Part shown: positions 25,685-51,909 of the stretch, piece by piece | How the letters are laid out: the number at the start of each line of letters is the position of its first letter | Position numbering within the stretch: position 1 is the first letter of the stretch | DNA from: a virus | DNA: 64,000 bases | Virus record (IMG/VR): IMGVR_UViG_3300032240_000412 | Location: 32,423-96,422 of that record | Strand: one strand, 5' to 3' | Position numbers and translations under genes: made by a program | Notes under the pieces: model-generated | What the model saw: only the letters and a program-made list of their open reading frames with translations | Database searches by the model: none | Told to the model about the DNA's origin: nothing

Positions 25685-25704
25685 GTTTATATGTCTACTG
25701 CCAA
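25663..25704. repeat. 17-bp inverted repeat covering the promoter spacer, the -10 box and the start codon
   Basis: TTGGCAGTAGA-g-CATATA / loop TAATGTT / TATATG-TCTACTGCCAA. Confidence 0.85.
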
Positions 25705-26005
25705 TCAACTTGTCGAGCAAATAAAACTCTCAACCGATTTCCAACTAAACAAAAAACGGTTAAAGGAAAAGATCCTAACCGATTTGCACATTCCGTACAA
25801 TAACGGATTGTTCTTGGTTGATCGATCACTTATAGCCTTCCTTAATTCTTGGGAAGATGAAATAATTTATATTGAAGATGTATATCAAAATCCTGTTCAG
25901 GTTAATAGGATTGAATTGTTGACATTGGCCAAACAGCATTATCAACTAGTTATGAATCAATGGCATCAAGAATATGACCAACTTCGTCGAGTTAGAAAAA
26001 TCTAA
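25691..26005 (+). CDS. Hypothetical protein (possibly a tail-fibre assembly chaperone-like protein)
   Basis: 104-aa ORF; first gene of a tightly overlapping operon. Confidence 0.6.
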   Translation: MSTANQLVEQIKLSTDFQLNKKRLKEKILTDLHIPYNNGLFLVDRSLIAFLNSWEDEIIYIEDVYQNPVQVNRIELLTLAKQHYQLVMNQWHQEYDQLRRVRKI

Positions 26006-26798
26006 AGGTGTATTGTATTTTGTATTTGATACTAAAGAATTTAAGTATTCTGAGATTGCCAAAACAAATGTACAATTAATTAACCATTTTTTAAAACTGC
26101 CTGTTACTGTGGTAACGGACAGCGAAACACCAATTGATTTTGCAGTCGATCGAGTGATACGACTAGATACAAGCAACGAAGTCATAAACACCAGATACTC
26201 CAGTACACACAGGACAAGAACACAGTGGCGCAATGGATTTAGACATCAAAGCTATCAGCTGAGTCCTTATACTGAAACATACGTAATTGATGTTGACTAC
26301 GTGGTGCTCAATGACAACTTGCTAAAACTTCCTGTACAGGACTATTGCCTTTACAAGAGTAATGTTTACTTAAACAATAGTGATGCTCATGAAACAATGG
26401 GTATATACAGTTTACCATTTCTTTGGGCCACTGTGTTATTTTTTAAAAAATGTCCTAGAACAGAGTTGATGTTTGGGTTAGTAGAACGCATACAGAGTAA
26501 CTATAATTATTATCGTGCCCTGTACAACATACCAGACCCAGCATTTAGAAATGACTATGCATTTGCCATAGCCGATAACATAGTTGAAGGCTACGCCGAT
26601 AGCGTAAAGCATATACCTTGGTCGTTGACCACAGTAGATAACACCGTCAGTTCTATAGAAGTTAAAGGCAGTAAAGTTTATGTCAAGCAACACAACACAG
26701 CCCATGTGTTGCCAATGATGGATCTACATATATTAGACAAAGTGTATTTGCAGTCAACTCAGCACAAAGATTTTGTAACATCTATTTTAAATGCGTAA
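25974..26798 (+). CDS. Putative GT-A fold glycosyltransferase (GT8-like)
   Basis: SPYTETYVIDVDY (DxD motif after a hydrophobic strand), WATVLFFKK, FRNDYAFAIA. Confidence 0.6.
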   Translation: MTNFVELEKSKGVLYFVFDTKEFKYSEIAKTNVQLINHFLKLPVTVVTDSETPIDFAVDRVIRLDTSNEVINTRYSSTHRTRTQWRNGFRHQSYQLSPYTETYVIDVDYVVLNDNLLKLPVQDYCLYKSNVYLNNSDAHETMGIYSLPFLWATVLFFKKCPRTELMFGLVERIQSNYNYYRALYNIPDPAFRNDYAFAIADNIVEGYADSVKHIPWSLTTVDNTVSSIEVKGSKVYVKQHNTAHVLPMMDLHILDKVYLQSTQHKDFVTSILNA

Positions 26799-27654
26799 AC
26801 ATCCACATCAAGCACAGCAAGGCTTTTTTACTTTTGCTCAGAACAATACTACAACAGATTATCTAGCAATGGCCTACGTGCAAGCAATGAGCGTTAAGTT
26901 AGCCATGCCCGGATCGTTGTATGCAGTAGCGGTAGATAAAGATACATTGTCGTTGATAACAGATCAACACCGACAAGTATTTGATTATGTAATTGAAATT
27001 GATGAAGACTATGCCAAGGATGACGAATGGAAGCTGGCCAACGAGTGGCAGGCTTTTTGGCTGACTCCTTTTAAAGAAACCATCAAACTAGAAGCAGATT
27101 TACTAATACCTGCAGATATATCACATTGGTGGAATGGTTTTAGACTGCGTGATGTAGTATTAAGCACAAACTGCCAAACATATATGGGCACTACTGTTAC
27201 AAGTGACACGCTACATAGAAAAATTTTCATTGACAACAACTTGCCCAATGTCTATAACGGACTAATGTATTTTAGATATAGTCAAATATCCAATTACTTT
27301 TTTAGTGTGGCGAGAGACATATATCAAGATTGGGACAGCGTTAGAAATACGTTAAAGAATTTACACAATATCAAACCGTCTACAGATCTAGTATATGCCA
27401 TCACTGCCATGTTTGTAGGACCAGAGTTTGTTACTCTACCCACCTTGAACTTTATTAACTTTGTTCACATGAAGCCGTCATTGCAAGGATGGAAGCAAGA
27501 TGACGATTGGACTGACTCGGTCATGACAGAATTTGATTTACCAATAATACGAATCAACAACAGGAATCAATATCATCCAATACACTACCATCAGAAAAAT
27601 TTTATAAAAAAGGAGGTTGTAGATGAATACCAACGAAGACTTGGCATTAGCTGA
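26791..27654 (+). CDS. Putative GT-A fold glycosyltransferase (GT8-like), paralog of the upstream gene
   Basis: TPFKETIKLEADLL (ExD), NVYNGLMYF, STDLVYAI, FVHMK. Confidence 0.55.
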   Translation: MRKHPHQAQQGFFTFAQNNTTTDYLAMAYVQAMSVKLAMPGSLYAVAVDKDTLSLITDQHRQVFDYVIEIDEDYAKDDEWKLANEWQAFWLTPFKETIKLEADLLIPADISHWWNGFRLRDVVLSTNCQTYMGTTVTSDTLHRKIFIDNNLPNVYNGLMYFRYSQISNYFFSVARDIYQDWDSVRNTLKNLHNIKPSTDLVYAITAMFVGPEFVTLPTLNFINFVHMKPSLQGWKQDDDWTDSVMTEFDLPIIRINNRNQYHPIHYHQKNFIKKEVVDEYQRRLGIS

Positions 27655-27988
27655 AGCATTTGCCAGCATAGTCCCACAGCCAGAGTACAAAATAGAATAT
27701 AGACTCTACTATGACAACGCAGGCAAGCCCACTTGCATGAGTTCAAATAATCATCCAGAGGGTCAATATGTCATAATAGACAAAGCCACATACGATCGAG
27801 CAATATATAATAATCTCAAAGTGGTAAACGGAACACTAATTACCATTGACACTAGCTCCCAACATCGTGTACAATTACAAAAGGTGGAGTCTGGGCCTTT
27901 TCGCACAGCAAAGAATAACGCTGGCATATTACTAACCAAAGACGAACAAGTAGAACAAACAGATTACTATGACCACAGAAATAATTGA
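27623..27988 (+). CDS. Hypothetical protein
   Basis: 121-aa ORF overlapping both neighbours. Confidence 0.6.
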   Translation: MNTNEDLALAEAFASIVPQPEYKIEYRLYYDNAGKPTCMSSNNHPEGQYVIIDKATYDRAIYNNLKVVNGTLITIDTSSQHRVQLQKVESGPFRTAKNNAGILLTKDEQVEQTDYYDHRNN

Positions 27989-28865
27989 TGTAGCAGACTT
28001 AGACTGCATATACTTAACATATGATGAACCTAAGAAAGAAGAGTTTTGGATCAAGATTCAAAACATGGTGCCATGGGCCAAGCGAGTTGATGGAGTCAAG
28101 GGCAGTGATGCCGCACACAAAGCCGCGGCTGATGCTAGTGATACTGATAGATTTGTTCTTATTGATGGCGATAACATTCCTGATGCTGAATTTTTTAATC
28201 TACAACTATCCCTGGATGATCACAATCGTGATTGTGTATTTCGTTGGCGAGCACGTAATGTGGTTAATGGACTAATGTATGGCAACGGAGGTATGAGTTG
28301 TTGGACCAAGGACTTTGTACACGATATGAAAACTCATGAATCCAGCGACGGATCATCTGCCAATGATGTGGAGTTTTGTTTCTACCCCAACTACTGGGCA
28401 ATGAATGACTGCTACAGCACTACATATCCCAATGGTAGCCCACTACATGCTTGGCGTGCCGGCTTCCGCGAAGGAGTTAAGATGTGTTTGGACAGAGGAG
28501 TTAAGCCCACTGTTGCAGAGTTTGAAAGTCGTGTTAACAATCGTAATTACGATAATCTATGTATTTGGCAAACTGTTGGAGCCGATTCTGATAATGGGTT
28601 TTGGTCAATTTATGGAGCACGTCTCGGCACATACCTTACCATGATCGAAGGGTGGGATTATAAAAAAGTACAAGACTTTGACGAGTTAAAAGCATTGTGG
28701 ACACAATATGAAAATCATGATGCTGACCACTGCACAGAAATTGGACAAGTATTACGTACAAGACTAGGTTTGCCGATTGTGGATATGGATCCAGACGAAA
28801 GCCGGTTTTTCAAACATCATTATCGTAGCAACTTTAAAAATAAAGGACCAATGATTTGTGAGTAA
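27969..28865 (+). CDS. Putative GT-A fold glycosyltransferase
   Basis: AHKAAADASDTDRFVLIDGDN resembles the GT2 'N..A......D.D' pattern; also NGLMYGNGG and AWRAGFREGVK. Confidence 0.6.
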   Translation: MTTEIIDVADLDCIYLTYDEPKKEEFWIKIQNMVPWAKRVDGVKGSDAAHKAAADASDTDRFVLIDGDNIPDAEFFNLQLSLDDHNRDCVFRWRARNVVNGLMYGNGGMSCWTKDFVHDMKTHESSDGSSANDVEFCFYPNYWAMNDCYSTTYPNGSPLHAWRAGFREGVKMCLDRGVKPTVAEFESRVNNRNYDNLCIWQTVGADSDNGFWSIYGARLGTYLTMIEGWDYKKVQDFDELKALWTQYENHDADHCTEIGQVLRTRLGLPIVDMDPDESRFFKHHYRSNFKNKGPMICE

Positions 28866-30243
28866 ATCAGATTTCATGACCGATGCTGAAAACATGCGAG
28901 ACCTATTGGGTCCTGCTCTTTGTTTGGCCAAATGGAAACAACTAAGCCTGCATTTACCAACTGGTTTAAACAATAGCTGTTACCACCCGCCGTTGCACTC
29001 AATAGACCCAGACGAAGTAAAAATCAATCCTGGCGCACTACATAATACAGCACATAAAAAAGAACAGCGTAAGATTATGTTACGCAACGAAAAACCCAGC
29101 GAATGCAGTTATTGTTGGAACATGGAAGCCAATGGTCAATTAAGTGATCGACACTATCGCAGTGGTGAGCCTTGGGCCTCTGAAGACTATGAAAAAATTA
29201 AAAATTCAACAGGAGATGAAAATGAAGTTGTTCCGTCCTACGTCGAGGTTAACTTTAACCATGCGTGTAATCTCAAATGTAGTTATTGCAGTCCTCAGTT
29301 TAGTAGCACTTGGGGTCAAGAAGTTGACAAGTTTGGCGGATTCCCAACAACGCCTATTCACAACGATCCTAGCCATTTTACTGGTCGCAATCGTCCTATA
29401 CCACATTCCCACGATAATCCTTATGTTGATGCATTCTGGCAATGGTGGCCAAGTCTTTATCCGCATCTAAAACATTTCCGCATGACCGGTGGTGAGCCAC
29501 TAATGGATCGGAATACATATAAAGTGTTTGACTATGTACTAGCGTTACCTAAGCCAGACCTGCACTTGAATGTGACCAGCAACTTCAGCGTAGAGCCGCA
29601 ATTATGGAACAAGTACTTTGACTATGTAAAAAAATTATGTAATACCAATATTGAGCATTTCATGCAGTATGTTAGTCTTGACACTGGTATTCCCGAACAG
29701 GCCGAGTATGTTCGTAGTGGCATGAACTACCATAGAGTTATGAGTCGTGTCAATCATTACCTAACAGACATTCCTTATAGGAATAGTCTGACGTTTATCA
29801 TTACAATGAATAACCTCAGTGTACTTGGCCTACAAAGATTACTGGATAGAATCTTGGAATTACGTAAAGCACATAGCACTACATACCAAAGAGTTTGGTT
29901 TGATACACCAGTGCTACGTAAACCAGAATGGCAAAGTCTACAGATACTTCCATCGGTATACAGCGAGCATTTAGAACGTATTGCAGACTGGATGGAACTA
30001 AATTTAGAAACACCAGAACGCCCATTCCAGGGATTTAAGGATTACGAAGTACAACGTCTAAGAAGAGACATTGCCTGGATGAAAAAAGGCAGTGAATTGG
30101 ACCCTGAATATGTTAAACTGCAACGTGCTAACTTTTACAGGTTCTTTAACGAGCACGATAAACGACGTGGAACCAACTTTGAAAAGACATTCCCACAGAT
30201 GATTGAATTTTGGAAAGAATGTAGATACTATGCACAGCAATAA
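28858..30243 (+). CDS. Radical SAM protein 1 (N-terminal twitch/SPASM-like Cys cluster)
   Basis: CNLKCSYC and GGEP; N-terminal C...SCYH...CSYCW. Confidence 0.9.
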   Translation: MSKSDFMTDAENMRDLLGPALCLAKWKQLSLHLPTGLNNSCYHPPLHSIDPDEVKINPGALHNTAHKKEQRKIMLRNEKPSECSYCWNMEANGQLSDRHYRSGEPWASEDYEKIKNSTGDENEVVPSYVEVNFNHACNLKCSYCSPQFSSTWGQEVDKFGGFPTTPIHNDPSHFTGRNRPIPHSHDNPYVDAFWQWWPSLYPHLKHFRMTGGEPLMDRNTYKVFDYVLALPKPDLHLNVTSNFSVEPQLWNKYFDYVKKLCNTNIEHFMQYVSLDTGIPEQAEYVRSGMNYHRVMSRVNHYLTDIPYRNSLTFIITMNNLSVLGLQRLLDRILELRKAHSTTYQRVWFDTPVLRKPEWQSLQILPSVYSEHLERIADWMELNLETPERPFQGFKDYEVQRLRRDIAWMKKGSELDPEYVKLQRANFYRFFNEHDKRRGTNFEKTFPQMIEFWKECRYYAQQ

Positions 30244-31390
30244 CTGTCCGTTGTATAGCAAAGGCTTGTATGTTGAAAAAATAAACAGCACAGAATCACG
30301 AGTGAGTATGTGCTGTTATCAATCAATGAGTCCGCAAGTATATACCAACATAGATTTTGATAACAATGACTATCTGATTAAGTTACGCAACGATGCAGAG
30401 TCTGGAGAGAAAATTCCCGAGTGCCAGGGTTGTTGGACAGCAGAAAAGTTTGGTATTAAAAGCTATAGACAAGGACAGATCGAATCTTTTAATTTTCAAA
30501 ACATCCCCGTTGATAAAACTGTAGAATTAATTAGCTTGTTATACAACTGTGAAAATACCTGTAATTTGAAATGTATCACATGCGGTCCACGTTACAGTTC
30601 GGCCTGGAGACAAGAGTACCAAAAATTAAATAAACTTGGTGAGTGGGACATTGTATCATCTAAGCAGACTTCTTTAAAAAATGATATTAGTTGTACATTG
30701 GATTTATCTAAAACAAAACTAATACATTTTCAAGGCGGCGAGCCATTACTAACCAAGGATCACGAAGCGGTATTACAGCAGGCATTAGATCAACACAATC
30801 TAACAGAAACTATTGTTAGCTACAACACCAATGGCACAGTATTCCCTAGTGCTAATACACAACAGCTTTGGAAAAATGCAAAGCTGGTAAAATTATACTT
30901 TAGTATTGATGCCATTAAAGATCAATTTGAATATGTTAGATACCCAGGCAACTGGCAAGCAGTTGAGGAAAATTTACTAAAGATTAAAAACACTATTCCC
31001 AATGTTTGGATTGAAATAGGTGTAACAGTGGGACTTGCTAACATATTCTATTTAAAAGATATTTTAGATTGGAGAGAAGCTAATTTTAATACTACCTTGT
31101 CTGGAGATCCAATCGGAATATACTTTAATCTGGTCAGTGATATAGAACCTGGAACAAGCGGACTAATGAAATTAGAAAATGCCAGTGGTAAAATCAAGGA
31201 TCAAGCATTGGAGTATATTGATTCGTTAAGATCATACAGTAATGTCACAGGCATAAACGAAATGAAGAATGCGCTAATTGATGCAACAGAAAACAACAAG
31301 TGGATTGACTTTTTAAACCAATTGGATAAAATTAGGAACACCAATTGGAATAAATCGTTGAGTAAATTACATAGATGTGTTACAATATAA
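30230..31390 (+). CDS. Radical SAM protein 2
   Basis: CNLKCITC, GGEP, YNTNGT, SIDA; N-terminal C...CC...CQGCW. ATG 30230 is preferred over TTG 30203. Confidence 0.9.
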   Translation: MHSNNCPLYSKGLYVEKINSTESRVSMCCYQSMSPQVYTNIDFDNNDYLIKLRNDAESGEKIPECQGCWTAEKFGIKSYRQGQIESFNFQNIPVDKTVELISLLYNCENTCNLKCITCGPRYSSAWRQEYQKLNKLGEWDIVSSKQTSLKNDISCTLDLSKTKLIHFQGGEPLLTKDHEAVLQQALDQHNLTETIVSYNTNGTVFPSANTQQLWKNAKLVKLYFSIDAIKDQFEYVRYPGNWQAVEENLLKIKNTIPNVWIEIGVTVGLANIFYLKDILDWREANFNTTLSGDPIGIYFNLVSDIEPGTSGLMKLENASGKIKDQALEYIDSLRSYSNVTGINEMKNALIDATENNKWIDFLNQLDKIRNTNWNKSLSKLHRCVTI

Positions 31391-31396
31391 AATATT

Positions 31397-32746
31397 ATGC
31401 CCAAATTTAACAACGAAACAGATTTAGAATATAAGCGCAGAGTAATTGACATCAAGTCAAGTAGCTTCTGCGGAGCAAAATGGTATAACGCTACTATTTG
31501 GTTAGGTAGCGGTATGACCACAAGTTGTCATCATCCGTTGCCACACAAGGTTGATGTTGATGACGTAATACGAAACCCTAAAGCATTGCACAACACGCAA
31601 AAGAAAAAAATGGAGCGTGAACAGATGCAGAAAGGAGAACGCCCAGCAGGTTGTGAGTATTGCTGGAAGATCGAAGATATTGGCAGAGACAATATCTCAG
31701 ACAGAGTCTACAAAACAGTTATATACACAGATGAGGAACTAAAACATGCCCATGCTAGGCCATCACGCGATGATGTGGATTTACGAACGCTTGAAATTGC
31801 TTTTGATCGTACATGTAATTTTGGGTGTAGTTACTGTAACCCTGCTTTCAGTAGCACTTGGGTTAGGGATATCGACACTAGAGGTCCTTATACCGGCCTC
31901 ACTTCAGACGGTAGGAATCATTTTACTCATAATCATGGAAGCAGTCAGTTGTACCGTTTTGGTGAACACAATCCGTATGTTGAAGCGTTCTTTAAGTGGT
32001 GGGACACGTCTTTAAGTAAAACCTTAACCGAGTTACGACTCACCGGCGGCGAGCCATTGATGTCAGGCGATACCTGGAAACTGTTAGAATGGTTCAAGAC
32101 ACACGATACAGACATGAAGTTTGCCATGAACAGCAATCTTGGTGCCAAGGACGAGCTAATAGATCGATTGATTGACGCTAGTCATAGTATCAAACATTTT
32201 CATCTGTATACCAGCAATGAATCAGTAAGTCAGCAAAGCGAGTATATTCGAGATGGACTAGTTTGGGATGACTGGGCCAATAATGTAGAGAAAGTATTGT
32301 CTAACGGAAACTTAGAAGGTTTTCATATGATGTGTACTATCAATGCATTATGTTTAGACTCCCTGGATAGTCTATTAGACTGTTGCCTAAACTGGAAACG
32401 CGAGTACGGAAAAGACTTTCCTACATTTTCACTAAATATATTGCGCTTTCCAAGTTTTCAATCACCTCTGGTCCTGCCAGACAACATACGCAATACCTAC
32501 AAACTTAAACTACAAGCATGGTTTGATGCAAACAAGGACGATCCTATGTTACATCAATTTGAGTTAAATCAATTGCAACGACTTATTGATTATTTGGACG
32601 TAGTTAAAACTCCGCATGTTGGTGCGGCAGAGCAAACAGTATTACAGCAAGACTTTAAAAAGTTCTACACACAATACGACGAGCGTAGAGGTAAAAACTT
32701 TACAGAAACGTTCCCTACACTAGCAGAATGGTATAACACACTATGA
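31397..32746 (+). CDS. Radical SAM protein 3 (paralog of protein 1)
   Basis: CNFGCSYC and GGEP; N-terminal CGAKW...SCHHP...CEYCW. Confidence 0.9.
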   Translation: MPKFNNETDLEYKRRVIDIKSSSFCGAKWYNATIWLGSGMTTSCHHPLPHKVDVDDVIRNPKALHNTQKKKMEREQMQKGERPAGCEYCWKIEDIGRDNISDRVYKTVIYTDEELKHAHARPSRDDVDLRTLEIAFDRTCNFGCSYCNPAFSSTWVRDIDTRGPYTGLTSDGRNHFTHNHGSSQLYRFGEHNPYVEAFFKWWDTSLSKTLTELRLTGGEPLMSGDTWKLLEWFKTHDTDMKFAMNSNLGAKDELIDRLIDASHSIKHFHLYTSNESVSQQSEYIRDGLVWDDWANNVEKVLSNGNLEGFHMMCTINALCLDSLDSLLDCCLNWKREYGKDFPTFSLNILRFPSFQSPLVLPDNIRNTYKLKLQAWFDANKDDPMLHQFELNQLQRLIDYLDVVKTPHVGAAEQTVLQQDFKKFYTQYDERRGKNFTETFPTLAEWYNTL

Positions 32747-34077
32747 CAGACAAATTAGAAAACTATTACGAGAACTATGACTATGGTGCTCGTAAACCTG
32801 TATACATTAAACAAGAAGATTTAAGACCAGATCAATTTGATAGGTTAATTAAAAGCGATAAATTCTGCATGTTGCCGTGGACGCACATGCATGCCTTTCC
32901 AGATGGTCGCGCATATAGTTGCTGTTTGTCAGAGATTGATCAATCAATTGGCAACTTAAAGAATAACACGCTACGTGAAATATGGAACGGCAAAGAATAC
33001 AAGACCATGCGCCTTAATATGCTGAATGAACAATCCAGTGCCGCATGTGAACGTTGTTACGAGCAAGAATCCAACGGGTTCTTTAGTATGCGTAATAGTG
33101 CAAATAAAAACTTTGGTCACCATATTGGACTAGTAGATGACACCAAAGAAGACGGTACCTACGAAGATTTCAAACTACGTTACTACGACATTCGATTCAG
33201 TAACCTATGTAACTTCAGTTGTCGTACTTGCGGCAGTATTTTTAGCAGTAACTGGTACAAGGACGAAGTTAAAGCAGGCTGGAAACCAAATCATCCTCAG
33301 ATCATGTACGCTGGCAAAAACGAAGACGACATGTGGGAGCAGATGCAAGAACATATTCCTCACCTGGAACAAATTTACTTTGCCGGCGGCGAACCACTTA
33401 TCATGAAAGAACACTGGAACGTACTGGACGAATTGGTTAAACGAGAAATGTTTCATGTACGATTGATCTACAACACTAACTTCTCAGAAATGAAGTTTAA
33501 AGGCCGTGACGTATTTGAAATGTGGAAACTGTTTGATTGTGTTAGCGTTGGCGCCAGCTTAGATGGCAGTTATGAGCGCGGCGAATACATTCGTAAAGGA
33601 CAGGATTGGCGACAAACAGTTGAAAATCGTGAACGTATGTTGCAAGTATGTCCTAATGTGGACTTTTATGTTAGCAGTACACTAAGTCTTTACAATGCAT
33701 TGCATATTACAGACTTCCATCGAGAATGGACAGACTTGGGGCTGGTTCGCCCACAAGATTGGAATATTAACATTTTACAAGATCCTCCTAGAGATCGTAT
33801 TGATGCGTTACCTTATCAGCTCAAACTCAGAGTTAAAGAAAAATTTGAAAAACATCTAGAGTGGTTAGAGCCGTTGGACACTTTGTCGAGGGCAACTCAA
33901 GGTTATAAGAGCGCCATTAATTTTATGATGCAAAACGATGGCACAGATGAGTTGGCTAACTTCTTTAGAACTAACAACAGACTTGACAAGATCCGCAACG
34001 AAGACTTTTTTGCAATTTTCCCAGAGTTGGCAGATTTACAAACCAATTGGAAAACATTAAATGAGCGACCTGCCTAA
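32743..34077 (+). CDS. Radical SAM protein 4
   Basis: CNFSCRTC, GGEP, YNTN, ASLDG; N-terminal CMLPW...CC...IGNL....L.EIWN...CERC. Confidence 0.92.
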   Translation: MTDKLENYYENYDYGARKPVYIKQEDLRPDQFDRLIKSDKFCMLPWTHMHAFPDGRAYSCCLSEIDQSIGNLKNNTLREIWNGKEYKTMRLNMLNEQSSAACERCYEQESNGFFSMRNSANKNFGHHIGLVDDTKEDGTYEDFKLRYYDIRFSNLCNFSCRTCGSIFSSNWYKDEVKAGWKPNHPQIMYAGKNEDDMWEQMQEHIPHLEQIYFAGGEPLIMKEHWNVLDELVKREMFHVRLIYNTNFSEMKFKGRDVFEMWKLFDCVSVGASLDGSYERGEYIRKGQDWRQTVENRERMLQVCPNVDFYVSSTLSLYNALHITDFHREWTDLGLVRPQDWNINILQDPPRDRIDALPYQLKLRVKEKFEKHLEWLEPLDTLSRATQGYKSAINFMMQNDGTDELANFFRTNNRLDKIRNEDFFAIFPELADLQTNWKTLNERPA

Positions 34078-38570: not shown

Positions 38571-39100
38571 TATTTGTAAACGGTGATAGTTTTACTTTTG
38601 GTGAAGAGTCATCTGTAGCATGGCCTAGTATTTTGCCAACGACAGTAAACATTGCTGTGCCTGGAGCAAGCAATGATTATATTGTACGTAGTACCGTCGA
38701 GTATCTTGAAAATAATGTTATAGACAAAGCAATAATAGCGTGGACTACACCCGATAGGATTGAACTAGGAAAAAAACATTTAACACCAACTAGTCAAGGG
38801 CGTTATGGAGCGATCTGCGATCAAGTATTCGGAGACTGGGACAATGATTGGGCAGTAGCAAAATTCCATGCTCAAGAAACGATGCTACATGGTTACTTGT
38901 CTAGCAAAGGAATACAGCACATATTTGTAAAAACATTTAACGTACCCAGCGTTGATAAAGAATATTGGATAATGAGTAGCATGGTAGAATGGATGGGCGA
39001 TTGCCCCAAGGGCCCAGGCGGACATCCGCTAGAACTAGGGCATCAAAGAATAGCAAAGAAGATCAATGAACATATTAGGCATCTCGGCTGGATTTCATGA
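38567..39100 (+). CDS. SGNH/GDSL-like protein
   Basis: NGDSFTFG, NIAVPGASND, GGHPLELGHQRIA. Confidence 0.7.
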   Translation: MIFVNGDSFTFGEESSVAWPSILPTTVNIAVPGASNDYIVRSTVEYLENNVIDKAIIAWTTPDRIELGKKHLTPTSQGRYGAICDQVFGDWDNDWAVAKFHAQETMLHGYLSSKGIQHIFVKTFNVPSVDKEYWIMSSMVEWMGDCPKGPGGHPLELGHQRIAKKINEHIRHLGWIS

Positions 39101-40565
39101 TGCGGCCGTTACAGTAATCAAAGACAATGAAATAGTCTTTGCTGGACACGCAGAACGATACAGTAAAATAAAAAACGATCCTCACATTAATGATAAATTA
39201 ATTGGAGAGGCATTGGAATTTGGCAAACCAGATGTGGTGGCGTATTACGAACGACCCTGGGTGAAAAAACTACAACAACTATATTCCGGACAATACAATG
39301 AAGCGTTCAGTGTTACTAATTATACTTTGGGTCAGTATCTGCGTCAACATATATCTAATCCTGTTTATCTCAAGCAATTACTACGATGCCCTCGAAAATA
39401 TATGTCCCATCATCATAGTCACGCCGCAGGAGGATTCCAGACCAGCCCCTACACGAGAGCCACTGTGGTTGTAATTGATGCTATTGGAGAACTAGACACT
39501 ATATCAATCTGGGGTGCAGAATACGTAAATGGTCAAGCCAAGTATACAAAACTGTGGGGACAACGCTACCCACACAGTATTGGATTGTTTTACAGCGCAA
39601 TGACCAAACGTGTGGGACTCAGGCCCTTGGACGAAGAATACATAATGATGGGCATGGCGGCCTATGGTGAATCGGGATTTGGTGATCTACTGTTGAAAGA
39701 TTTTGTATCCAACGAATCAGAAATTGAGTTTAAAGACAATTTGCATTTGGGTGTTGCGCCTGGATATTTAGATTATGTATCAGATATGGATTTGGCCGCA
39801 GGCGCACAAGATGTCTGCGAACAGTTGGTATATAATGTAATGAAACGTGCCAGAGACTTTAAATGGAGCAACAACTTAGTTTATATGGGCGGTGTGGCAC
39901 TTAATTGTTTAGCCAATAGACGTTTAGGAGAATATTTTGAAAACATTTGGATTATGCCTAATCCTGGCGATGCTGGTAGTAGCCTTGGGTCTGCCGCTTT
40001 GGTTCATGGAGGTAGAATTAACTGGACAAGTGCTTATCTCGGTACTGACATTCCTGGTGATTACCCCGTTATGGATATTGTGGATCAGTTACTTGCTACA
40101 CAAATTGTTGGAGTGGCATCCGGACGAGCCGAATTTGGCCCAAGAGCTTTGGGCAACCGCAGTCTCTTGGCGGACCCGAGAGGAAAAGAAATAAAGGATC
40201 GAGTAAATGAAATCAAACGAAGACAACAATTCAGACCATTTGCGCCAGTCATTCTGGAGGAGCATGTTAGCGATTATTTTGTTATGCCTAACGGCTTCAG
40301 TGACAGCGGGTATATGCAAGTCGTCGGTGATTGTAGGTATCCTGACTTATTTCCTGCTATCGTTCACGCTGATGGGACTAGTCGTATACAGACAGTTGCA
40401 AAAAATGGATCAGGAATAAGACAACTATTAGAAGCATGGTATAGCAAAACAGGCTGTCCAATGTTATTGAACACTTCATTAAACATTAGAGGAGAGCCAA
40501 TGGTAAATGATCGTAGCGATGCAGATCGTTTTGAGCAGTTGTATAAAATAAAGGTAATGTCATGA
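39066..40565 (+). CDS. O-carbamoyltransferase (NodU/CmcH/TobZ family)
   Basis: ILGIS..HDAA, ERYS..K, HHHSHA, DAIGE, MGMAAYG, GGVALNC, GDAG, EFGPRALGNRS, RPFAP, HADGTSRIQTV, LLNTSLNIRGEPMV. Confidence 0.95.
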   Translation: MNILGISAGFHDAAVTVIKDNEIVFAGHAERYSKIKNDPHINDKLIGEALEFGKPDVVAYYERPWVKKLQQLYSGQYNEAFSVTNYTLGQYLRQHISNPVYLKQLLRCPRKYMSHHHSHAAGGFQTSPYTRATVVVIDAIGELDTISIWGAEYVNGQAKYTKLWGQRYPHSIGLFYSAMTKRVGLRPLDEEYIMMGMAAYGESGFGDLLLKDFVSNESEIEFKDNLHLGVAPGYLDYVSDMDLAAGAQDVCEQLVYNVMKRARDFKWSNNLVYMGGVALNCLANRRLGEYFENIWIMPNPGDAGSSLGSAALVHGGRINWTSAYLGTDIPGDYPVMDIVDQLLATQIVGVASGRAEFGPRALGNRSLLADPRGKEIKDRVNEIKRRQQFRPFAPVILEEHVSDYFVMPNGFSDSGYMQVVGDCRYPDLFPAIVHADGTSRIQTVAKNGSGIRQLLEAWYSKTGCPMLLNTSLNIRGEPMVNDRSDADRFEQLYKIKVMS

Positions 40566-41422
40566 CACAAAGAATTTTAATTATGGGCCTACCAGGTTCA
40601 GGTAAAACCACACTAGCAGGCGCACTTAAACGCTATTTAGAAGAACACGGCGATTTAGAAAAAATTAATCCTCAGCGAATACTAAACTACGAAGGAATCG
40701 CAGGGCCTGATTTTTATAAGGTAGGAGTAGATTGGTTCAATGCCGATGATGTACGTAGAAAATTCAATGATTGGGACTTTAGTAAAGAAGGTCGCATACG
40801 TCAAAGTTTACGTATGTTGCAATTTGCAATTGAATGTTCTGGCGAGTTTGTAATCTGCGACTTTGTCGCGCCCCTAGTTGAAATGCGTAACAACTTCAAA
40901 GCAGACTGGACCATATGGGTAGACACTATTCGTGAAGGTCGCTATGCTGATACCAACGCGGCCTTTGTTGAACCTGAGGTGTATGACTTCCGTGTAACAG
41001 AACAAGATTGTGAAAAATGGGCTGAATTTATTGGCAACCACATTATTGAAAATCGTAGACGCCCTGTATTTGATTGGAAGCGAGAAACAGTACAGATGTT
41101 GGGTCGTTGGCAACCTTGGCATGATGGACACCGTGCCTTGTTTGAACGCTTAATACAACGTACAGGGCAGGTAGTTATTCAGATACGCGATGTTCAAGGT
41201 TGGCAAGGATCAAATCCGTTTGAAGTAGAAAAAGTTAAGAAGTTTATTCGACGCGATTTAGATCCTATCTATCAAGGACAGTATGAAATACAAGTAGTGC
41301 CTAATATTGTACACATTGGTTGGGGTCGTGGTGTAGGTTATACTAGCGGTGAAGAAACGTTTGATGAAACAATTACTGATATCAGTGCTACCAAGATTAG
41401 AAAAAGCCTAGGGTTAAAATAA
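40562..41422 (+). CDS. Fusion of an APS-kinase-like P-loop kinase and an HxGH nucleotidyltransferase
   Basis: N-terminal GLPGSGKTT, NADDVR, DFS.EGR.RQ, FVAP; C-terminal MLGRWQPWHDGH and ISATKIR. Confidence 0.8.
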   Translation: MTQRILIMGLPGSGKTTLAGALKRYLEEHGDLEKINPQRILNYEGIAGPDFYKVGVDWFNADDVRRKFNDWDFSKEGRIRQSLRMLQFAIECSGEFVICDFVAPLVEMRNNFKADWTIWVDTIREGRYADTNAAFVEPEVYDFRVTEQDCEKWAEFIGNHIIENRRRPVFDWKRETVQMLGRWQPWHDGHRALFERLIQRTGQVVIQIRDVQGWQGSNPFEVEKVKKFIRRDLDPIYQGQYEIQVVPNIVHIGWGRGVGYTSGEETFDETITDISATKIRKSLGLK

Positions 41423-41643
41423 TGGAAGAGATTATAATTAGATTCAATACCAAGTTTGCAGACACACAGACATATTGGCGTGTGATTGTTAACGGTCAAG
41501 AGCACCTGGCTGAGGATCTAATTATATATGCCAGTCCTGTTTATACAAAAGAAACAATGGAAAATGGTTTTCCTAAGTGGAACATTGCTTGCCGCGGCAG
41601 AGTAGAATGGCAAGATCGTGTGGCTATAATACACAGCTCTTGA
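41422..41643 (+). CDS. Hypothetical protein
   Basis: 73-aa ORF coupled to the upstream gene by a TAATG overlap. Confidence 0.6.
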   Translation: MEEIIIRFNTKFADTQTYWRVIVNGQEHLAEDLIIYASPVYTKETMENGFPKWNIACRGRVEWQDRVAIIHSS

Positions 41644-42763
41644 GTTTGACCTGCAACTCATTCCAACAATATTCCAGAAATGACGGATCTTTAAATCTAT
41701 TGTAGTTGTGTTGTAACACATGATCCATCTTGGCTTGCATGAGCAATAGTTCTCCTTTGTTTAGAGAACATATATATTTCAATTGCTTAACTACTGCTTG
41801 TATACGTAGTACAGGATCTTCTATAGTGTCATAGCTTTCGTCCCAGAAGTTGCTGAATGTTTTAAATCCGTAACTTTGCAGATATTCTAAGTTATGAGCA
41901 CAACCTACCAGCATAAAAGGTTGTTTGAGCAGTATAGGTTTAAAAATCTTTTCAGTTAAGTGTTTCTTTTGTTCCCAGAAGCAGGTTTCTGTTACTACTT
42001 GCAAGAAGCTTTCTTGACATTGTACTATTGGTTCTAGACTAAAACTCTGATTGGGAATTTCGTCAGGAAAGTCTATTCTAAACGAATGTGTACAAGATTC
42101 AATATTGGCCACCGCTTCATCTGCCAACTGCCTTGATACCAAATTGGGTTCTGCGTACAAGTTTGCTCTAAGGTCCGAGTTGTTGATACAGTTCTTGTTG
42201 TAACTTATGTGCCCTTCGTCTAACAAGTTGTTTTTGATTAGCTCGTTTACAAACAGAGTTCTATAGACTCTAGGGCCACTGGTAATTCTATTAAATGTAA
42301 TAAACTTTTTGTTGATAGGGCGTAGGTTAGGTTCTATCTGTTGACTGTTAAACTCGGCGCCTCTAAACCAATCGTGTGCCGCAAATGCATGATGGAAGTA
42401 GTCAATAACAGGCCAGCCATAGCGTTCTTTGAGTGCCTGTACTGGTAGACTATCTTGTTCGGTTGTTACAATAGCATAAGGGCCTAGGAAGTTGTCTCGT
42501 ATGTGATCAAAGAACTTGTAATTAAATTCTCCGTAGATGGGCTCTTGGTCATAAAATATAAAAAGAGTTCCTTCTTTTATTGTGGCCGGGTCAATCAGCT
42601 TGCGATAACATTCTTGGTGCAGTTTATCTAGGTTGTCCGAAATAGTTTCAATGTTTTTTGGTTGAGTTGATCCATAAGGCAGTAGATAAAGTAGACGCCG
42701 ATGTGCTACAATACGTTTCAAGGAGTGAAATATATTTTCGTAATGAAGATGGATATTATACAT
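41624..42763 (-). CDS. Putative GT-B-like glycosyltransferase (GT10/exostosin-like C-terminus)
   Basis: VVTET.....HLTEKIFKPI....PF.LVG.....YLQSYGF resembles the 'ENS..YITEK...P' motif of GT10-like enzymes. It is the only minus-strand gene in 1-45 kb. Confidence 0.5.
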   Translation of the reverse strand: MYNIHLHYENIFHSLKRIVAHRRLLYLLPYGSTQPKNIETISDNLDKLHQECYRKLIDPATIKEGTLFIFYDQEPIYGEFNYKFFDHIRDNFLGPYAIVTTEQDSLPVQALKERYGWPVIDYFHHAFAAHDWFRGAEFNSQQIEPNLRPINKKFITFNRITSGPRVYRTLFVNELIKNNLLDEGHISYNKNCINNSDLRANLYAEPNLVSRQLADEAVANIESCTHSFRIDFPDEIPNQSFSLEPIVQCQESFLQVVTETCFWEQKKHLTEKIFKPILLKQPFMLVGCAHNLEYLQSYGFKTFSNFWDESYDTIEDPVLRIQAVVKQLKYICSLNKGELLLMQAKMDHVLQHNYNRFKDPSFLEYCWNELQVKLKSCVL

Positions 42764-44981
42764 GTTTGATGTTTTTTACTTTGGACCCAAGCCAGGACTG
42801 TTTGCATTTGAACAACATGCTGACAGTATTGAGTCAGCGGCCGAGCAAAGTAGAACTCGACACTTCTGGTATATTTATGGTGGCAATGACTACACTGGTT
42901 TTGATTTTAGTTGTAAGCCGGTACCGTGGGAAGCACACCAAATACATGTATGGCCTAGCCAATGGCAAAAAGACGGCGGGGTGTATCTAGCACCTAAACA
43001 GTTTACAGAAAAGATCTGGAACTTTCATAACAACAGTCCTGTGCGTAGACTGCCCAATCAAGCCAATTGGGTAGTGCCAGCAGAGTTTGATGCTGACTTT
43101 GATTTTAGTTGGCATCCAGACCCACACAGTCCCGCTTACGAATATCATTTCAGTAGCCAGTGGCAACGTAGCAGTGGTATCAAGTATATGTTGCCCAACA
43201 GTCAAGGTATCAAGTTTGTTGACGACTTTAAGATTGCTACCAATAGTTTAGCAGATATCTTTTTTATTGACTATGGTAACGCATTGTCGGACACCAGATT
43301 TGAACAGATAAAGCAACGCTACCCACATGTAAAGAGAACACGCTTTGTGGGCGACACCTACTCGGTGATGAAACGTTGTGCAACCAAGTCACGTGGGCGC
43401 TTTTGGTTCATCAGCAGTCGCATAGACTACACAGACTTTGATTTTGATTGGCATAGCGAAAGTTGGCAAACACAAATGATTCATGTGTTTGGCAGTCGCT
43501 GGCAAAAGTGGACAGATACATTCTTAGTCAGTGTGCCCACATTCCTACATCATGCCACATGGTGCACGGATCTCAAAGACTTTCCAGACTTGAATTATGT
43601 CACAGATCAAACTGTTTCTGTTGACCAAACAGAAATATATCTAATAGATCATTTATGTGGTCTAGATGCTGTTGACGAGATACGTCAGCAAGTTCCTACT
43701 GTAAAGGTAACTCGTTTTGTAGAAAGCTACCTTGAAACTTTTAAAAGAATTTTGAATACTGTTGAAACAGATTATATCTGGATTATCAGTAGTGTATGCG
43801 AATACAAAGATTTTGACTTTAGTTGGCATCCGGAGCCATGGCAACGAGAAATGATACATGTATTTCCTAACTATACCAACAAGTACGGTGATACGTTTTA
43901 CATACATGTAGAATCTTTTAAAAAGCAAATGTACGATTTAGAGTTGCTTGATTGGTTTAACGTCATTAACTATTGTACCGACCAATATGTAACACGTAGA
44001 CCTATGCCAGTGCATTACTACAATTCAGACGATTTAATAACCGAGATCAAGAACTATCAATTTACTGCACCATATGCAATCTTTACCAATCAATCAGATT
44101 GTAATTTACGTTGTTACCCAACACTATGGTCGCCCAAGGATCGTACAGTTTCGCGATTTAGCAGGTCAGGTGCTACTACGCTAGTACCTCGTGAAATCAA
44201 GGCACATTTGAACCAACAAATATACGATTATCCCTATCTTGAGACCTCGAAAACACAGATTCATGACTGTTATTTGCACAAAAATTTTCCAATACTTGAC
44301 ATCATTTACATAAGCAATGGAGAACCAGATGAGGAACGCTGGTACAATCATTTGTGCCAAATGAGCAACAGTAGTCCACAGAATATTCCTTGGGTACGTG
44401 GCATAAACGGACGTACCGCGGCATACCAAGAAGCCGCACGACGCAGTGAAACTCCATGGTTCTTTGCAGTGTTTGCCAAATTGGAAGTTGTTGATTTTGA
44501 TTGGCGTTGGATGCCAGATTATTGGCAAGGCCCTAAACACTACATCTTTAATAGTCGTAATCCTGTTAACGGATTGGAATACGGGCACCAAGGTATGATT
44601 GCTTACAATAAACAATTGGTATTGGAAAACAACACTCCCGGAATTGACTTTACACTGAGTCAACCACACGAAGCAGTGCCTATCTTAAGTGGCATCGCTC
44701 ACTTTAATCAAAGTGCTTGGATGACCTGGCGTACTGCTTTCCGCGAAGTAGTTAAGCTAAAACACTTTATGGCTACACAGCCCACACTAGAAACCAGTCA
44801 TAGACTAGCAACTTGGTGTGAAGTTGCTGAAGGTGAATTTGCAGAATATTGTTTGGCCGGAGCCCGTGATGCGGTATTGTACTACAATCAAGTTGGGGGA
44901 GATTACGAAAAGCTAAAACTCAGCTTTGATTGGGCTTGGCTAAAAGAATATTATGATAATAAATATTCTTATGAACCCTGA
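42762..44981 (+). CDS. Multi-repeat GT-A-like protein (degenerate glycosyltransferase repeats)
   Basis: Four copies of (D)FDF(S/D)(W/C)..(E)PW..H(V)(F/W)....W; the C-terminal unit is paralogous to 27969-28865. Confidence 0.6.
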   Translation: MFDVFYFGPKPGLFAFEQHADSIESAAEQSRTRHFWYIYGGNDYTGFDFSCKPVPWEAHQIHVWPSQWQKDGGVYLAPKQFTEKIWNFHNNSPVRRLPNQANWVVPAEFDADFDFSWHPDPHSPAYEYHFSSQWQRSSGIKYMLPNSQGIKFVDDFKIATNSLADIFFIDYGNALSDTRFEQIKQRYPHVKRTRFVGDTYSVMKRCATKSRGRFWFISSRIDYTDFDFDWHSESWQTQMIHVFGSRWQKWTDTFLVSVPTFLHHATWCTDLKDFPDLNYVTDQTVSVDQTEIYLIDHLCGLDAVDEIRQQVPTVKVTRFVESYLETFKRILNTVETDYIWIISSVCEYKDFDFSWHPEPWQREMIHVFPNYTNKYGDTFYIHVESFKKQMYDLELLDWFNVINYCTDQYVTRRPMPVHYYNSDDLITEIKNYQFTAPYAIFTNQSDCNLRCYPTLWSPKDRTVSRFSRSGATTLVPREIKAHLNQQIYDYPYLETSKTQIHDCYLHKNFPILDIIYISNGEPDEERWYNHLCQMSNSSPQNIPWVRGINGRTAAYQEAARRSETPWFFAVFAKLEVVDFDWRWMPDYWQGPKHYIFNSRNPVNGLEYGHQGMIAYNKQLVLENNTPGIDFTLSQPHEAVPILSGIAHFNQSAWMTWRTAFREVVKLKHFMATQPTLETSHRLATWCEVAEGEFAEYCLAGARDAVLYYNQVGGDYEKLKLSFDWAWLKEYYDNKYSYEP
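44960..44965 (+). promoter_or_regulatory. Late promoter box TAAATA ahead of a small ORF
   Basis: ATAAATA ends 5 nt before the ATG at 44971. Confidence 0.45.
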
Positions 44982-45048
44982 TCAATACCCAGTATATCCT
45001 GAGGATGATGGTTACGATAGATTTCGTAACCCTTACAGTCCTGTTTAA
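44971..45048 (+). CDS. 25-aa peptide MNPDQYPVYPEDDGYDRFRNPYSPV (not in the ORF track)
   Basis: It exactly fills the convergence gap, is preceded by TAAATA, and its TAA shares the TTAA palindrome with the stop of the convergent DegT gene. Confidence 0.55.
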   Translation: MNPDQYPVYPEDDGYDRFRNPYSPV

Positions 45049-46169
45049 TAGTTTAAAGAGCCATTGCGGCAAAATCCTTGTACTGCACTGGCAATACGTT
45101 CTACTTCTTCGTCTGACAATTCGGGATATATTGGTAAACTAAGCGCAGTACGACTGAGAGTCTCTGAATTACTTACATCGGTTAGTTTAGGAGTATGATG
45201 ATTTCCTGCCACTGGATAATCGTACAACGGATGTTCGTAGTGTATTTTTGTTTCTATGCCAGATGCTTCTAACCATTGTTGGCAGTGATTACGATCATCA
45301 AGTTTGATAACATACTTGTGCCAGGCATGTTCTACATCTTTATCTACCCACGGAGTAGTAGCAAAGTCAGACAGTTCAGTTGTGTAGTATTTGGCTATTT
45401 CAGTTCTACGTCTTTGCCATGCATCAAAATGATCTAGCTTTACTAGCATTTGAGCACAGTCGCTTTCGCTCATTTTACTGTTGGTACCAGTTTCATAATG
45501 ATCCAATGCTTTACCGTTGTTGCGTAAACTGAGCAATCTTGTATATACATCAAAGTCATCAGTTAGTATCATACCGCCTGACCCATAGTTGGGCAAGTTC
45601 TTTGTAGGATCAAAACTCAGCAAACTGATGTCACCAAAACTGCCACTAGGGCGACCTTTATACCGTGCGCCAAAACTCTGTGCCGCATCTTCAATTACGC
45701 AAAGGCCAGAATTCCAAAAATCCACAACAAGAGAAAATCTATCGTAGTTGATCATGTTACCGTACAAGTTAACATACATGACAGCATCAACCATGTCATC
45801 AAGTTTACCGTAGACTGTTTCTACATCTAGAATATTGTTGTCGGGATTGATGTCGCAGAATATAGGATTGTTGCCAGAGCGCAATACACTATTCAACGTG
45901 GCAATAAAGCTCTGTCCAGGAATCAAGATATTGCTTTGCGTTAGTTCCAATGCTTCTAAAGCAAATATCAATCCCTGTGTGCAACTATTAACAGCAACAG
46001 CATATTTGCGTTGACACCGATGTGCAATTTGACGTTCAAATTCGCGAGTGTACTCGCCATCTAACACCTGTCCACTTTGATAGACAGTGTCAGCGGCGTT
46101 GAGAAGTTCTTCTCTGAGATCGTTATACTGTCTTGGTAGACCAGTAAACGGAATTTTTAAGCCACTCAT
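45045..46169 (-). CDS. DegT/DnrJ/EryC1/StrS PLP-dependent sugar aminotransferase
   Basis: VNSCTQGL, VIEDAAQSFGA, SFDPTKNL (PLP lysine), RNNG, GTNSKM, LSLPIYP. Confidence 0.95.
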   Translation of the reverse strand: MSGLKIPFTGLPRQYNDLREELLNAADTVYQSGQVLDGEYTREFERQIAHRCQRKYAVAVNSCTQGLIFALEALELTQSNILIPGQSFIATLNSVLRSGNNPIFCDINPDNNILDVETVYGKLDDMVDAVMYVNLYGNMINYDRFSLVVDFWNSGLCVIEDAAQSFGARYKGRPSGSFGDISLLSFDPTKNLPNYGSGGMILTDDFDVYTRLLSLRNNGKALDHYETGTNSKMSESDCAQMLVKLDHFDAWQRRRTEIAKYYTTELSDFATTPWVDKDVEHAWHKYVIKLDDRNHCQQWLEASGIETKIHYEHPLYDYPVAGNHHTPKLTDVSNSETLSRTALSLPIYPELSDEEVERIASAVQGFCRNGSLNY

Positions 46170-47094
46170 AATAAATTTGGAATCCTTCTTCTACATCAAC
46201 TTTAGGGTCATACCCAAAATCTCTACGTGCCGCATCAATGTTCAATGCACCACGACTAGGGAAGTCTTTGTCTTTGTCTTTGACTACCAATGTTCCGCCA
46301 CCTGCCAGCTTCAGCGCCAGTTGTGCGGCTTCTAACAATGTACGACTATGGCTCTTGGTAATATTGTATGTTTTGTTTTTGGTATTGTCGCTTAATGCGG
46401 CGGCAACAATGCCATCTGCGGCATCATCTACATAAGTAAAGTCTAATGTTTCGTCTGCACCATTAACATTCAATGTGCCGCCCCGCATTGCTGTTAACAT
46501 AAACTTGGCAATCACACGATCCTCAACATCAAGTGGTCCATATACAGCACTGGGTCGAATGATGGTGTGAACAAGTTTGGACTTGCGTGAATAATCTTTA
46601 ACTAACCATTCGCCGGCCAGTTTCATAATACCATATTGTCCTTGTGGTTTGCAAACAGCATCTTCAGTTACATCGTCAGTGAAGTCACCGTACACCATCG
46701 AACTACTGATATAGATAAACTTCTTAACATCATACTTGTTGCTAGCTTCTAGTAAATTGAGCAATCCTTCGCTCATAACACGACTTCCCCAGGCAGGATC
46801 TGCGTTAACTACTTTTTGCCTTGGGAAGCTGGCCATATGTATAACAATCTCGGGCTGTTCTACATTGAACACATAATCAACTGATTTACTATCACTGATA
46901 TCACGTTCATGAACATAACTATCTACTGCAATTTTCTTCCTACGTTCGGTCATTAGGTAATCAACTTCTGCTTGAGGAATGATTCCGTAGTTTGTTTTAA
47001 TATCCATAATAGATACTAGATGGCCCTGATCTTGCAATCTCTTAACTATGTTGTGACCAATTAAACCTAGGCCACCTGTTACTAAAATTCTCAT
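46123..47094 (-). CDS. NAD-dependent NDP-sugar epimerase/dehydratase (extended SDR)
   Basis: ILVTGGLGLIG, SSSMVYG, YGIMK (YxxxK), RPSAVYGP, DFTYVDD. Confidence 0.95.
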   Translation of the reverse strand: MRILVTGGLGLIGHNIVKRLQDQGHLVSIMDIKTNYGIIPQAEVDYLMTERRKKIAVDSYVHERDISDSKSVDYVFNVEQPEIVIHMASFPRQKVVNADPAWGSRVMSEGLLNLLEASNKYDVKKFIYISSSMVYGDFTDDVTEDAVCKPQGQYGIMKLAGEWLVKDYSRKSKLVHTIIRPSAVYGPLDVEDRVIAKFMLTAMRGGTLNVNGADETLDFTYVDDAADGIVAAALSDNTKNKTYNITKSHSRTLLEAAQLALKLAGGGTLVVKDKDKDFPSRGALNIDAARRDFGYDPKVDVEEGFQIYYEWLKNSVYWSTKTV

Positions 47095-51886: not shown

Positions 51887-51909
51887 TTGAGCTCCTTATT
51901 AATATATGT

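Follow-up and report, generated by a model that had tools for sequence, protein, structure and literature searches.

A block of 20 genes, labelled A to T, occupies positions 25691-47094 (~21 kb) of the DNA analysed here, a stretch of 64,000 nucleotides (nt) from the IMG/VR virus record IMGVR_UViG_3300032240_000412. This stretch, referred to below as the window, is the final 64 kb of a 96.4-kb viral contig with a CheckV completeness of 27%. As delimited from the open reading frame (ORF) listing, the block includes six radical S-adenosylmethionine (SAM) enzymes, several glycosyltransferase-like proteins, a carbamoyltransferase and a pair of amino-sugar enzymes, and it directly follows the fibre-like genes of the virus: gene A starts 41 nt past the last of them (end 25649), and the majority of junctions within the block are overlaps of 4-40 nt. 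A perfect sigma-70-type promoter, TTGACA-17-TATAAT, precedes gene A and is the sole 12/12 match to the sigma-70 consensus in the 20-57 kb part of the window. The first-pass annotation of this DNA had described about 20 tightly overlapping genes after the tail genes, headed by a consensus promoter of their own, and both descriptions hold. The GC content of the block is the same as that of its flanks, and a membrane helix is predicted in none of its proteins. To judge from its gene content, the best-supported reading of the block is that it would tailor a glycan. Its features, and the nearby thymidylate synthase genes, are as follows.

25656..25684, + strand: perfect sigma-70-type promoter TTGACA-17-TATAAT; the -10 box ends 6 nt 5' of the ATG of gene A
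25691..26005, + strand: A, conserved protein of 104 amino acids, present in 69 of 88 loci
25974..26798, + strand: B, GT8-like (glycogenin-like) GT-A candidate with DxD at D106/D108; hhalign match to the C family, 98.8%
26791..27654, + strand: C, GT8-like candidate glycosyltransferase, ExD in place of DxD; glycogenin-1 profile match
27623..27988, + strand: D, protein of 121 amino acids
27969..28865, + strand: E, GT-A-fold candidate; N-terminal GT-A/nucleotide-diphospho-sugar-transferase fold with DGDN, helical C-terminal half
28858..30243, + strand: F, N_Twi radical SAM 1 (NF033640, 308 bits); the ortholog in phage RsoM2USA adjoins the E homolog of that phage
30203..31390, + strand: G, N_Twi radical SAM 2 (NF033640, 216 bits); variable slot, 3 of 88 loci
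31397..32746, + strand: H, N_Twi radical SAM 3 (NF033640, 303 bits); 53% identical in RsoM2USA
32743..34077, + strand: I, N_Twi radical SAM 4 (NF033640, 405 bits); SPASM/twitch at residues 42-106
34061..35278, + strand: J, N_Twi radical SAM 5 (NF033640, 359 bits); Pfam SPASM at residues 9-78
35271..36590, + strand: K, N_Twi radical SAM 6 (NF033640, 282 bits)
36580..37716, + strand: L, conserved protein of 378 amino acids; confident model, no clear PDB match
37691..38494, + strand: M, SGNH-like protein with GGDSF, GxND and HPLExAH motifs; weak DUF6071 match
38567..39100, + strand: N, SGNH-like paralog of M (hhalign, 99.8%)
39066..40565, + strand: O, NodU/CmcH/TobZ-family carbamoyltransferase, with both Pfam halves
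40562..41422, + strand: P, P-loop kinase fused to an HxGH/ISxTxxR nucleotidyltransferase, by motifs
41624..42763, - strand: Q, conserved protein of 379 amino acids; its GT10-like label is only a lead
42762..44981, + strand: R, protein of 739 amino acids with N-terminal FDFSW repeats and a C-terminal E-like domain without DGDN
45045..46169, - strand: S, DegT/DnrJ/EryC1 sugar aminotransferase, closest to PseC and DesI
46123..47094, - strand: T, extended SDR, similar to nucleoside diphosphate (NDP)-sugar 4,6-dehydratases/epimerases (SDR/Epimerase E-value 5.8e-43)
47330..48719, - strand: thymidylate synthase (ThyA) and dihydrofolate reductase (DHFR), in the flank, outside the block; ThyA with PCH and PFNIASY (Asn177)

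Conservation and transcription of the block

Conservation was counted in 88 fetched viral loci. The order (fibre genes)-A-B-C-D-E-F-H-I-J-K-L-(M-N)-O-P-Q-R-S-T-(ThyA) recurs in about 70-80 of them; genes A-L are present in 52-82 of the 88, only G being variable. Of 599 viral stretches matched, at least 598 contain an ortholog of H, and another radical SAM enzyme of the block matches over 7,500 metagenomic proteins at an E-value of 1e-10 or better. Proteins E, F, H and K are 60-86% identical across the loci, above the conservation of the fibre genes, and a 20-gene block kept at such identity, beyond that of the adjacent fibres, must matter to these phages. At a greater distance, the cultured Ralstonia phage RsoM2USA has a fibre-like gene followed by B, C, a further position x, E, F and an E-like gene in the same order, at 28-39% identity, with H-M-N-O located elsewhere on its chromosome; carrying this core (B-C-E-F, H-M-N-O; genes 348-353 and 199-204), it offers a cultured system for testing. 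Megablast of the whole block found no match among 50,697 phage records.

The block had been labelled an island, which turns out to be a misnomer: a mobile island or a recent acquisition is rejected on the grounds of a GC content equal to that of the flanks and of a gene order conserved down to 28-39% identity. Scattering of the genes in relatives had been named as an outcome that would speak against the first interpretation; the genes are conserved and syntenic instead. Judged by these sequence comparisons, the block is a vertically conserved part of the core of this phage clade.

The promoter is retained at the equivalent place, with at least 10/12 matches, in 41 of 68 relatives, often after a terminator-like hairpin. 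Several structural genes are preceded instead by a shorter TAAATA box (3739, 4171, 7549 and 23119), and the T4 late promoter octamer TATAAATA occurs 0 times in the whole window versus 4.4 expected. The sigma-70-type promoter, the hairpin and the TAAATA boxes on the structural genes suggest that the block is a separate, probably early, transcription unit. Its earlier description as attached to the tail-fibre genes is therefore accurate as to position, and is offset by the conserved promoter of its own and by the terminator hairpin that stands before it in many relatives. The start of gene A (window 25656-25693) has no Shine-Dalgarno sequence and, since 6 nt separate the -10 box from the ATG, the transcript of gene A is probably leaderless. 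A second group of relatives has its -10 box ~25 nt upstream of A, within a perfect operator-like palindrome.

Radical SAM paralogs and sugar-related enzymes

Proteins F-K all score above the curated cut-off (170 bits) of the NCBIfam family NF033640 (twitch domain-containing radical SAM protein, N_Twi_rSAM), at 216-405 bits, and are recognized as radical SAM proteins by Pfam too, so that the initial count of six such enzymes is borne out. The SPASM/twitch segment, as located by Pfam, is N-terminal to the radical SAM core. Alignment of the six paralogs reveals an invariant CX3CX2C (CNxxCxxC) cluster made of C156, C160 and C163, three cysteines upstream (C61, C102 and C105), and the FSSxW and GGEP motifs, also kept across F-K. 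NF033640 as a family has the same N-terminal Cys-rich twitch/SPASM region, CNxxCxxC and GGEP, whereas the phages considered here have expanded it to 6-12 copies per genome. Mutual identity of the paralogs is 22-29% (a profile built from all six is too divergent for scanning), while each ortholog group is conserved among relatives; such conserved groups of diverged paralogs indicate distinct, non-redundant steps. In the complete relatives (354-374 kb), five of the 6-12 N_Twi_rSAM genes are inside the block and the others are dispersed, with up to seven copies outside the block, scattered among minus-strand genes (genomes G001-G004).

The nearest solved chains to N_Twi_rSAM are found only at an E-value of 3.5e-4, and BtrN gives no match reaching 0.01 for the N_Twi radical SAMs. 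A literature search retrieved no paper on N_Twi_rSAM function or on this gene block; two leads concerning radical SAMs of Xanthomonas had no bearing on either. Nishimura et al. 2017 (PMC5332604) noted as many as 12 radical SAM genes in T4-like marine genomes, with no function given.

In bacteria, N_Twi_rSAM is rare, being found in 2 of 401 sampled Pseudomonadota genomes, one of which has four tandem copies in the arrangement RmlD - Wzm - Wzt(Wzt_C) - four N_Twi_rSAM - TylF-type methyltransferase - methyltransferase - WbsX glycosyltransferase. A pooled Pfam scan of 126 neighbours at 20 further loci gave, besides radical SAMs, Glycos_transf_2 (GT2), methyltransferases, Acyl_transf_3 and ABC_tran/Wzt_C as the commonest families, with GDP-mannose dehydratase, GT4 and sulfotransferase likewise recurrent. 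The bacterial relatives of the block radical SAMs belong to O-antigen/polysaccharide loci. When radical SAM I was used to scan genome contigs, all proteins retrieved were of the C-terminal SPASM type and none was an N_Twi member. The Wzm/Wzt O-polysaccharide loci share with the phage block the tandem N_Twi_rSAM genes beside glycosyltransferases, sugar nucleotide enzymes and O-modifying enzymes. The phage block, in contrast, has no Wzm/Wzt or membrane component, and none of its glycosyltransferase set (B, C, E, R), SGNH pair and carbamoyltransferase is found in the two bacterial loci compared.

Several other proteins of the block are members or candidate members of families that act on sugars and related hydroxyl compounds. 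In protein O, both Carbam_trans_N and Carbam_trans_C are above the gathering score (124.5 + 165 bits; E-values 1.5e-48 and 8.8e-36), and the nearest solved chains are novobiocin carbamoyltransferase (5e-52), GdmN and TobZ (1.4e-31), in agreement with the proposed NodU/CmcH carbamoyltransferase. The reported pairing of a DegT protein with an SDR is equally well founded. Protein S matches the DegT profile of Pfam at positions 2-360 of 360 (290.6 bits, 2.5e-86), and PseC, DesI and all other equivalog models score under cut-off; T has the SDR/Epimerase match listed above and, like S, stays under every equivalog cut-off, the RmlB-type 4,6-dehydratase model TIGR01181 giving it 119.6 bits versus a cut-off of 365. 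P shows the motifs of the kinase-nucleotidyltransferase fusion anticipated for it, a Walker A GLPGSGKTT followed by WHDGH and ISATKIRK, and could be bifunctional in the manner of HldE/NadR; family scores of the nucleotidyltransferase half stay at or below 24.5 bits versus cut-offs above 127. Proteins M and N, annotated at the outset as SGNH-like, have the GDSF and GxND blocks, carry HPLExAH instead of DxxH as block V, and are paralogs of each other; Pfam support from DUF6071 is weak and under cut-off, and M has no sequence match in PDB.

Glycosyltransferase-like proteins were studied with family alignments built from related loci. Conservation within the block is highest in E (mean column identity 74%), which has an invariant DGDN motif. 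Residues 5-157 of its AlphaFold model, which has a predicted local distance difference test score (pLDDT) of 76, align by VIA-align exclusively with GT-A glycosyltransferases and sugar-1-phosphate nucleotidyltransferases, at Z of 6-7.9; the best Foldseek match is A64R of PBCV-1 (capsid-glycosylating, PDB 2p6w), at an E-value of 0.019, others being weaker, and some longer homologs of E bear Glycos_transf_2. B and C are paralogs, and in a 110-residue match of the C profile to glycogenin-1 in PDB (1.2e-4) the DxD position is aligned. Homology to E (98.7%) is seen at the C-terminus of R, whose N-terminus, as read from the family consensus, contains about four FDFSW...PWEP...HxFGxQW repeats. For Q, an Atlas lead (0.79) to GT10-like proteins is unconfirmed by Pfam; as Glyco_transf_10 gave nothing above cut-off in five genomes, the label is reduced to a lead. 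Member-wise Pfam scans of the Q and R families yielded noise only, and profile searches against PDB sequences gave no match for E, B, L, M, Q or R. Two to four of the four to five glycosyltransferase-like proteins originally counted are thus supported, and a firm five is not. R-like genes are multiplied in tandem in some relatives (L010 and L068).

PHROGs provided nothing useful for the block proteins without assignment. Among these, L has a confident model (pLDDT 85, predicted template modelling score 0.83) with no Foldseek match in PDB; VIA-align, at Z of 8 or less, points to a cyclophilin-like barrel with a helical insert, and L may represent a new fold arrangement.

Proposed glycan tailoring and its alternatives

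From the observed enzyme families, paralogy, synteny, promoter, solubility and bacterial context we infer a scheme in which every chemical step, the order of the steps and the acceptor are conditional. In it, T and S would convert an NDP-hexose into an NDP-4-amino-4,6-dideoxy-type sugar, and P would activate a further building block. B and C (GT8-like), E (GT-A-fold) and R (a relative of E) would transfer sugars. Each of the five core radical SAMs and the variable one would then perform a different radical edit at C-H positions of the sugars, be it oxidation, epimerisation, dehydration or C-C chemistry; M and N would add or remove O-acyl groups, and the TobZ-like O would carbamoylate a hydroxyl. 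In general form, that is, about 20 soluble cytoplasmic enzymes that activate an amino-deoxy-sugar, assemble a short glycan and edit it heavily on a cytoplasmic acceptor, this proposal has in our estimate an even chance of being correct. The first-pass annotation had also favoured a glycan, and the inventory of enzymes for sugar activation and tailoring, with the DegT + SDR logic of NDP-amino-deoxy-sugars, together with the polysaccharide context in bacteria, agrees with that. Its further claims, of completeness and of a target, fare less well: no initiating transferase, acceptor or exporter has been identified for a "complete pathway", nor does the block contain a membrane helix.

As acceptor, a protein of the virion surface is most likely, the candidates being the Thr/Ser/Asn-rich fibre proteins encoded just upstream. 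In their favour are the position of the block, which RsoM2USA also retains, and the make-up of the neighbouring fibre-like protein (24657-25649), in which S+T+N+G amount to 51% and Thr alone to 17.9%. In this specific version, with a radical-SAM-edited, O-acylated and O-carbamoylated amino-sugar glycan on Thr/Ser-rich tail fibres, the proposal is tentative and we would rather doubt it than rely on it. Several observations weigh against glycan tailoring in general or its placement on the virion. No acceptor, initiating enzyme or product has been identified, and our literature search found no biochemical study of any N_Twi_rSAM member. Glycosyltransferase assignments are weak at the family level: the fold match of E is under Z 8, and Glyco_transf_8 (PF01501), like Glyco_transf_10, gave nothing above cut-off in five genomes. 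The tally of 126 bacterial neighbours had no background control, and the up to seven N_Twi_rSAM copies outside the block suggest that the family may not serve a single pathway. Finally, the sigma-70-type promoter suggests early, not late, expression, which suits a DNA- or host-directed role no less than decoration of the virion.

An intermediate of a host envelope glycan is almost as plausible an acceptor as the virion fibres, although as a full account of the block it is in our view unlikely. Soluble enzymes would here edit lipid-linked O-antigen or capsule units of the host in the cytoplasm and host transporters would export them, altering the surface during a long infection and so serving superinfection exclusion or keeping progeny off debris. 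The promoter type and the bacterial context favour host lipid-linked glycans, since the bacterial homologs reside in O-antigen loci of the Wzm/Wzt type, in which chain assembly is cytoplasmic; an exporter of its own would be unnecessary for the phage if the host provides one, and carbamoyltransferases are common in cyanophages and pelagiphages. The block, however, is devoid of membrane proteins and of a polyprenyl-phosphate transferase, flippase or ligase, its adjacency to the fibre genes is kept even in RsoM2USA, and the very high conservation of its enzymes among phages whose hosts probably differ speaks for a substrate internal to the phage. Modification of DNA or its nucleotide precursors, in which the carbamoyltransferase, kinase, glycosyltransferases and radical SAMs would decorate a hydroxymethyl-pyrimidine or other base, is unlikely to much the same degree, or slightly more so. 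P-loop kinases participate in known thymidine hypermodification, ThyA and DHFR are 2-3 genes away from the block, and the sigma-70-type, presumably early promoter is compatible with such a role. Phage carbamoyltransferases of the NodU/TobZ family make 5-carbamoyloxymethylcytosine and co-occur with thymidylate synthase homologs that have Asp177 (Yang et al. 2021, eLife, PMC8670742), and the block likewise has an enzyme of this family near a thymidylate synthase-family gene. In contrast to that system, ThyA in the window is canonical, with PCH (His147) and PFNIASY (Asn177), which makes it a predicted true dTMP synthase, and the sugar enzymes and radical SAMs of the block are absent from that paper's description. 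In each of four relatives with 98-100% completeness, PF00303 has a single match, which scores as canonical; neither a partner thymidylate synthase homolog with Asp177 nor another source of 5-hydroxymethylcytosine was found in them or in the window, which belongs to a contig covering 27% of its genome. Tet_JBP had no match in the same four relatives, in a search without positive control, and Pfam detected no MazG or dCMP-deaminase partners among the scanned small ORFs near ThyA. DegT + SDR, the GT8-like proteins and the SGNH enzymes belong, moreover, to sugar pathways, and the bacterial neighbours of N_Twi_rSAM are polysaccharide genes. RsoM2USA, which carries H-M-N-O, is a different case: its gene 10 (L187:208-1044, record 7607-8443) is a second thymidylate synthase homolog, in which Asp replaces Asn177 and Thr replaces His147, a candidate dCMP hydroxymethylase or methylase, so that the DNA of this phage may carry a modified cytosine and the DNA explanation stays alive for it. 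The early remark that a DNA target is less likely thus gave too little weight to the precedent of phage 5-hydroxymethylcytosine carbamoyltransferases, yet its direction agrees with the canonical ThyA and the lack of an Asp177 partner in the genomes compared.

Two further explanations do without a glycan as the main product. An aminoglycoside-, aminocyclitol- or nucleoside-like diffusible molecule, made with twitch radical SAM, DegT, glycosylation and carbamoylation steps, is improbable. The combination of a twitch radical SAM with DegT mirrors the logic of BtrN/BtrS, O is closest, among solved structures, to antibiotic carbamoyltransferases (novobiocin, GdmN, TobZ), a kinase is present and an acceptor protein is not evident; but the block is core to a lytic phage clade, has no scaffold synthase, exporter or self-resistance gene, and the bacterial context is one of polysaccharide, not antibiotic, clusters. 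Slightly more improbable still is side-chain chemistry on a phage protein or precursor peptide, which twitch/SPASM radical SAMs would cross-link or epimerise, the sugar enzymes being secondary. Most SPASM-domain radical SAMs mature peptides, and the block contains the small ORFs A and D as well as tiny ORFs; the NCBIfam matches of the block enzymes to sactipeptide/ranthipeptide maturases are, however, weak and far under cut-offs, no precursor-like repeat or leader is seen in the block, the bacterial N_Twi_rSAM neighbours are glycan genes, and five conserved distinct paralogs without a recognition element for ribosomally synthesized and post-translationally modified peptides would be atypical.

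Glycan tailoring has partial parallels in systems that are already known. Giant-virus fibril glycosylation and mycobacteriophage virion glycosylation are instances of virus-encoded virion glycosylation. Virion glycosylation of the A64R type in chlorovirus PBCV-1 has in common with the block viral GT-A enzymes, here candidates, and NDP-amino-sugar enzymes encoded beside structural genes; such systems are not known to use radical SAM enzymes, SGNH pairs or a carbamoyltransferase, and the match of E to A64R is weak. Aminoglycoside tailoring employs the twitch radical SAM dehydrogenase BtrN, DegT-family aminotransferases and the O-carbamoyltransferase TobZ, and thus shares with the block the combination of twitch radical SAM, DegT and TobZ-like carbamoyltransferase on sugars; it differs in that the twitch domain here is N-terminal and not C-terminal, and the block has no aminocyclitol synthase, exporter or resistance gene.

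If a radical-SAM-edited glycan on the fibres proved true, it would be the first radical-SAM-tailored virion glycosylation system in bacteriophage. Jumbo phages of a very large clade, from water and soil, would share it, and the N_Twi_rSAM family would thereby gain a defined chemistry. The identity of the product would in any case assign chemistry to a radical SAM subfamily also present in bacterial O-antigen loci, and would tell whether phages have a new way of glycosylating virions, hosts or DNA. The block is also a possible source of new sugar-editing biocatalysts.

Flanking genes

The gene content of the window identifies its source as a jumbo T4-like myophage, because it includes baseplate hub and wedge genes, an ORF of 4,269 amino acids and fibre-like proteins. 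The gp6-like wedge protein is 33-36% identical to those of the Atu_ph07, Rak2/GAP32 and RsoM2USA group, which are distant kin. The 4,269-amino acid ORF (window 7549-20358, + strand) lies between a baseplate wedge gene and the fibre-like genes, and its product is presumably a giant fibre or baseplate-associated structural protein.

On the minus strand, a DUF2201 putative metallopeptidase/VWA protein adjoins an AAA ATPase (window 50615-53096), the two resembling a MoxR/VWA pair, and a phage D-alanyl-D-alanine carboxypeptidase is encoded at 58670-59431 (Peptidase_S11, E-value 2.7e-39). Upstream of the window, at 22-26 kb of the contig, two more radical SAM genes, both non-N_Twi, are found in the stretch L002 (7077-9001 and 10755-11459), together with a clear DUF6071 (SGNH-like) gene, a third member beside M and N. 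These radical SAM and DUF6071 genes lie interspersed among genes for gp46/gp47-like recombination nucleases and for a PDDEXK endonuclease.

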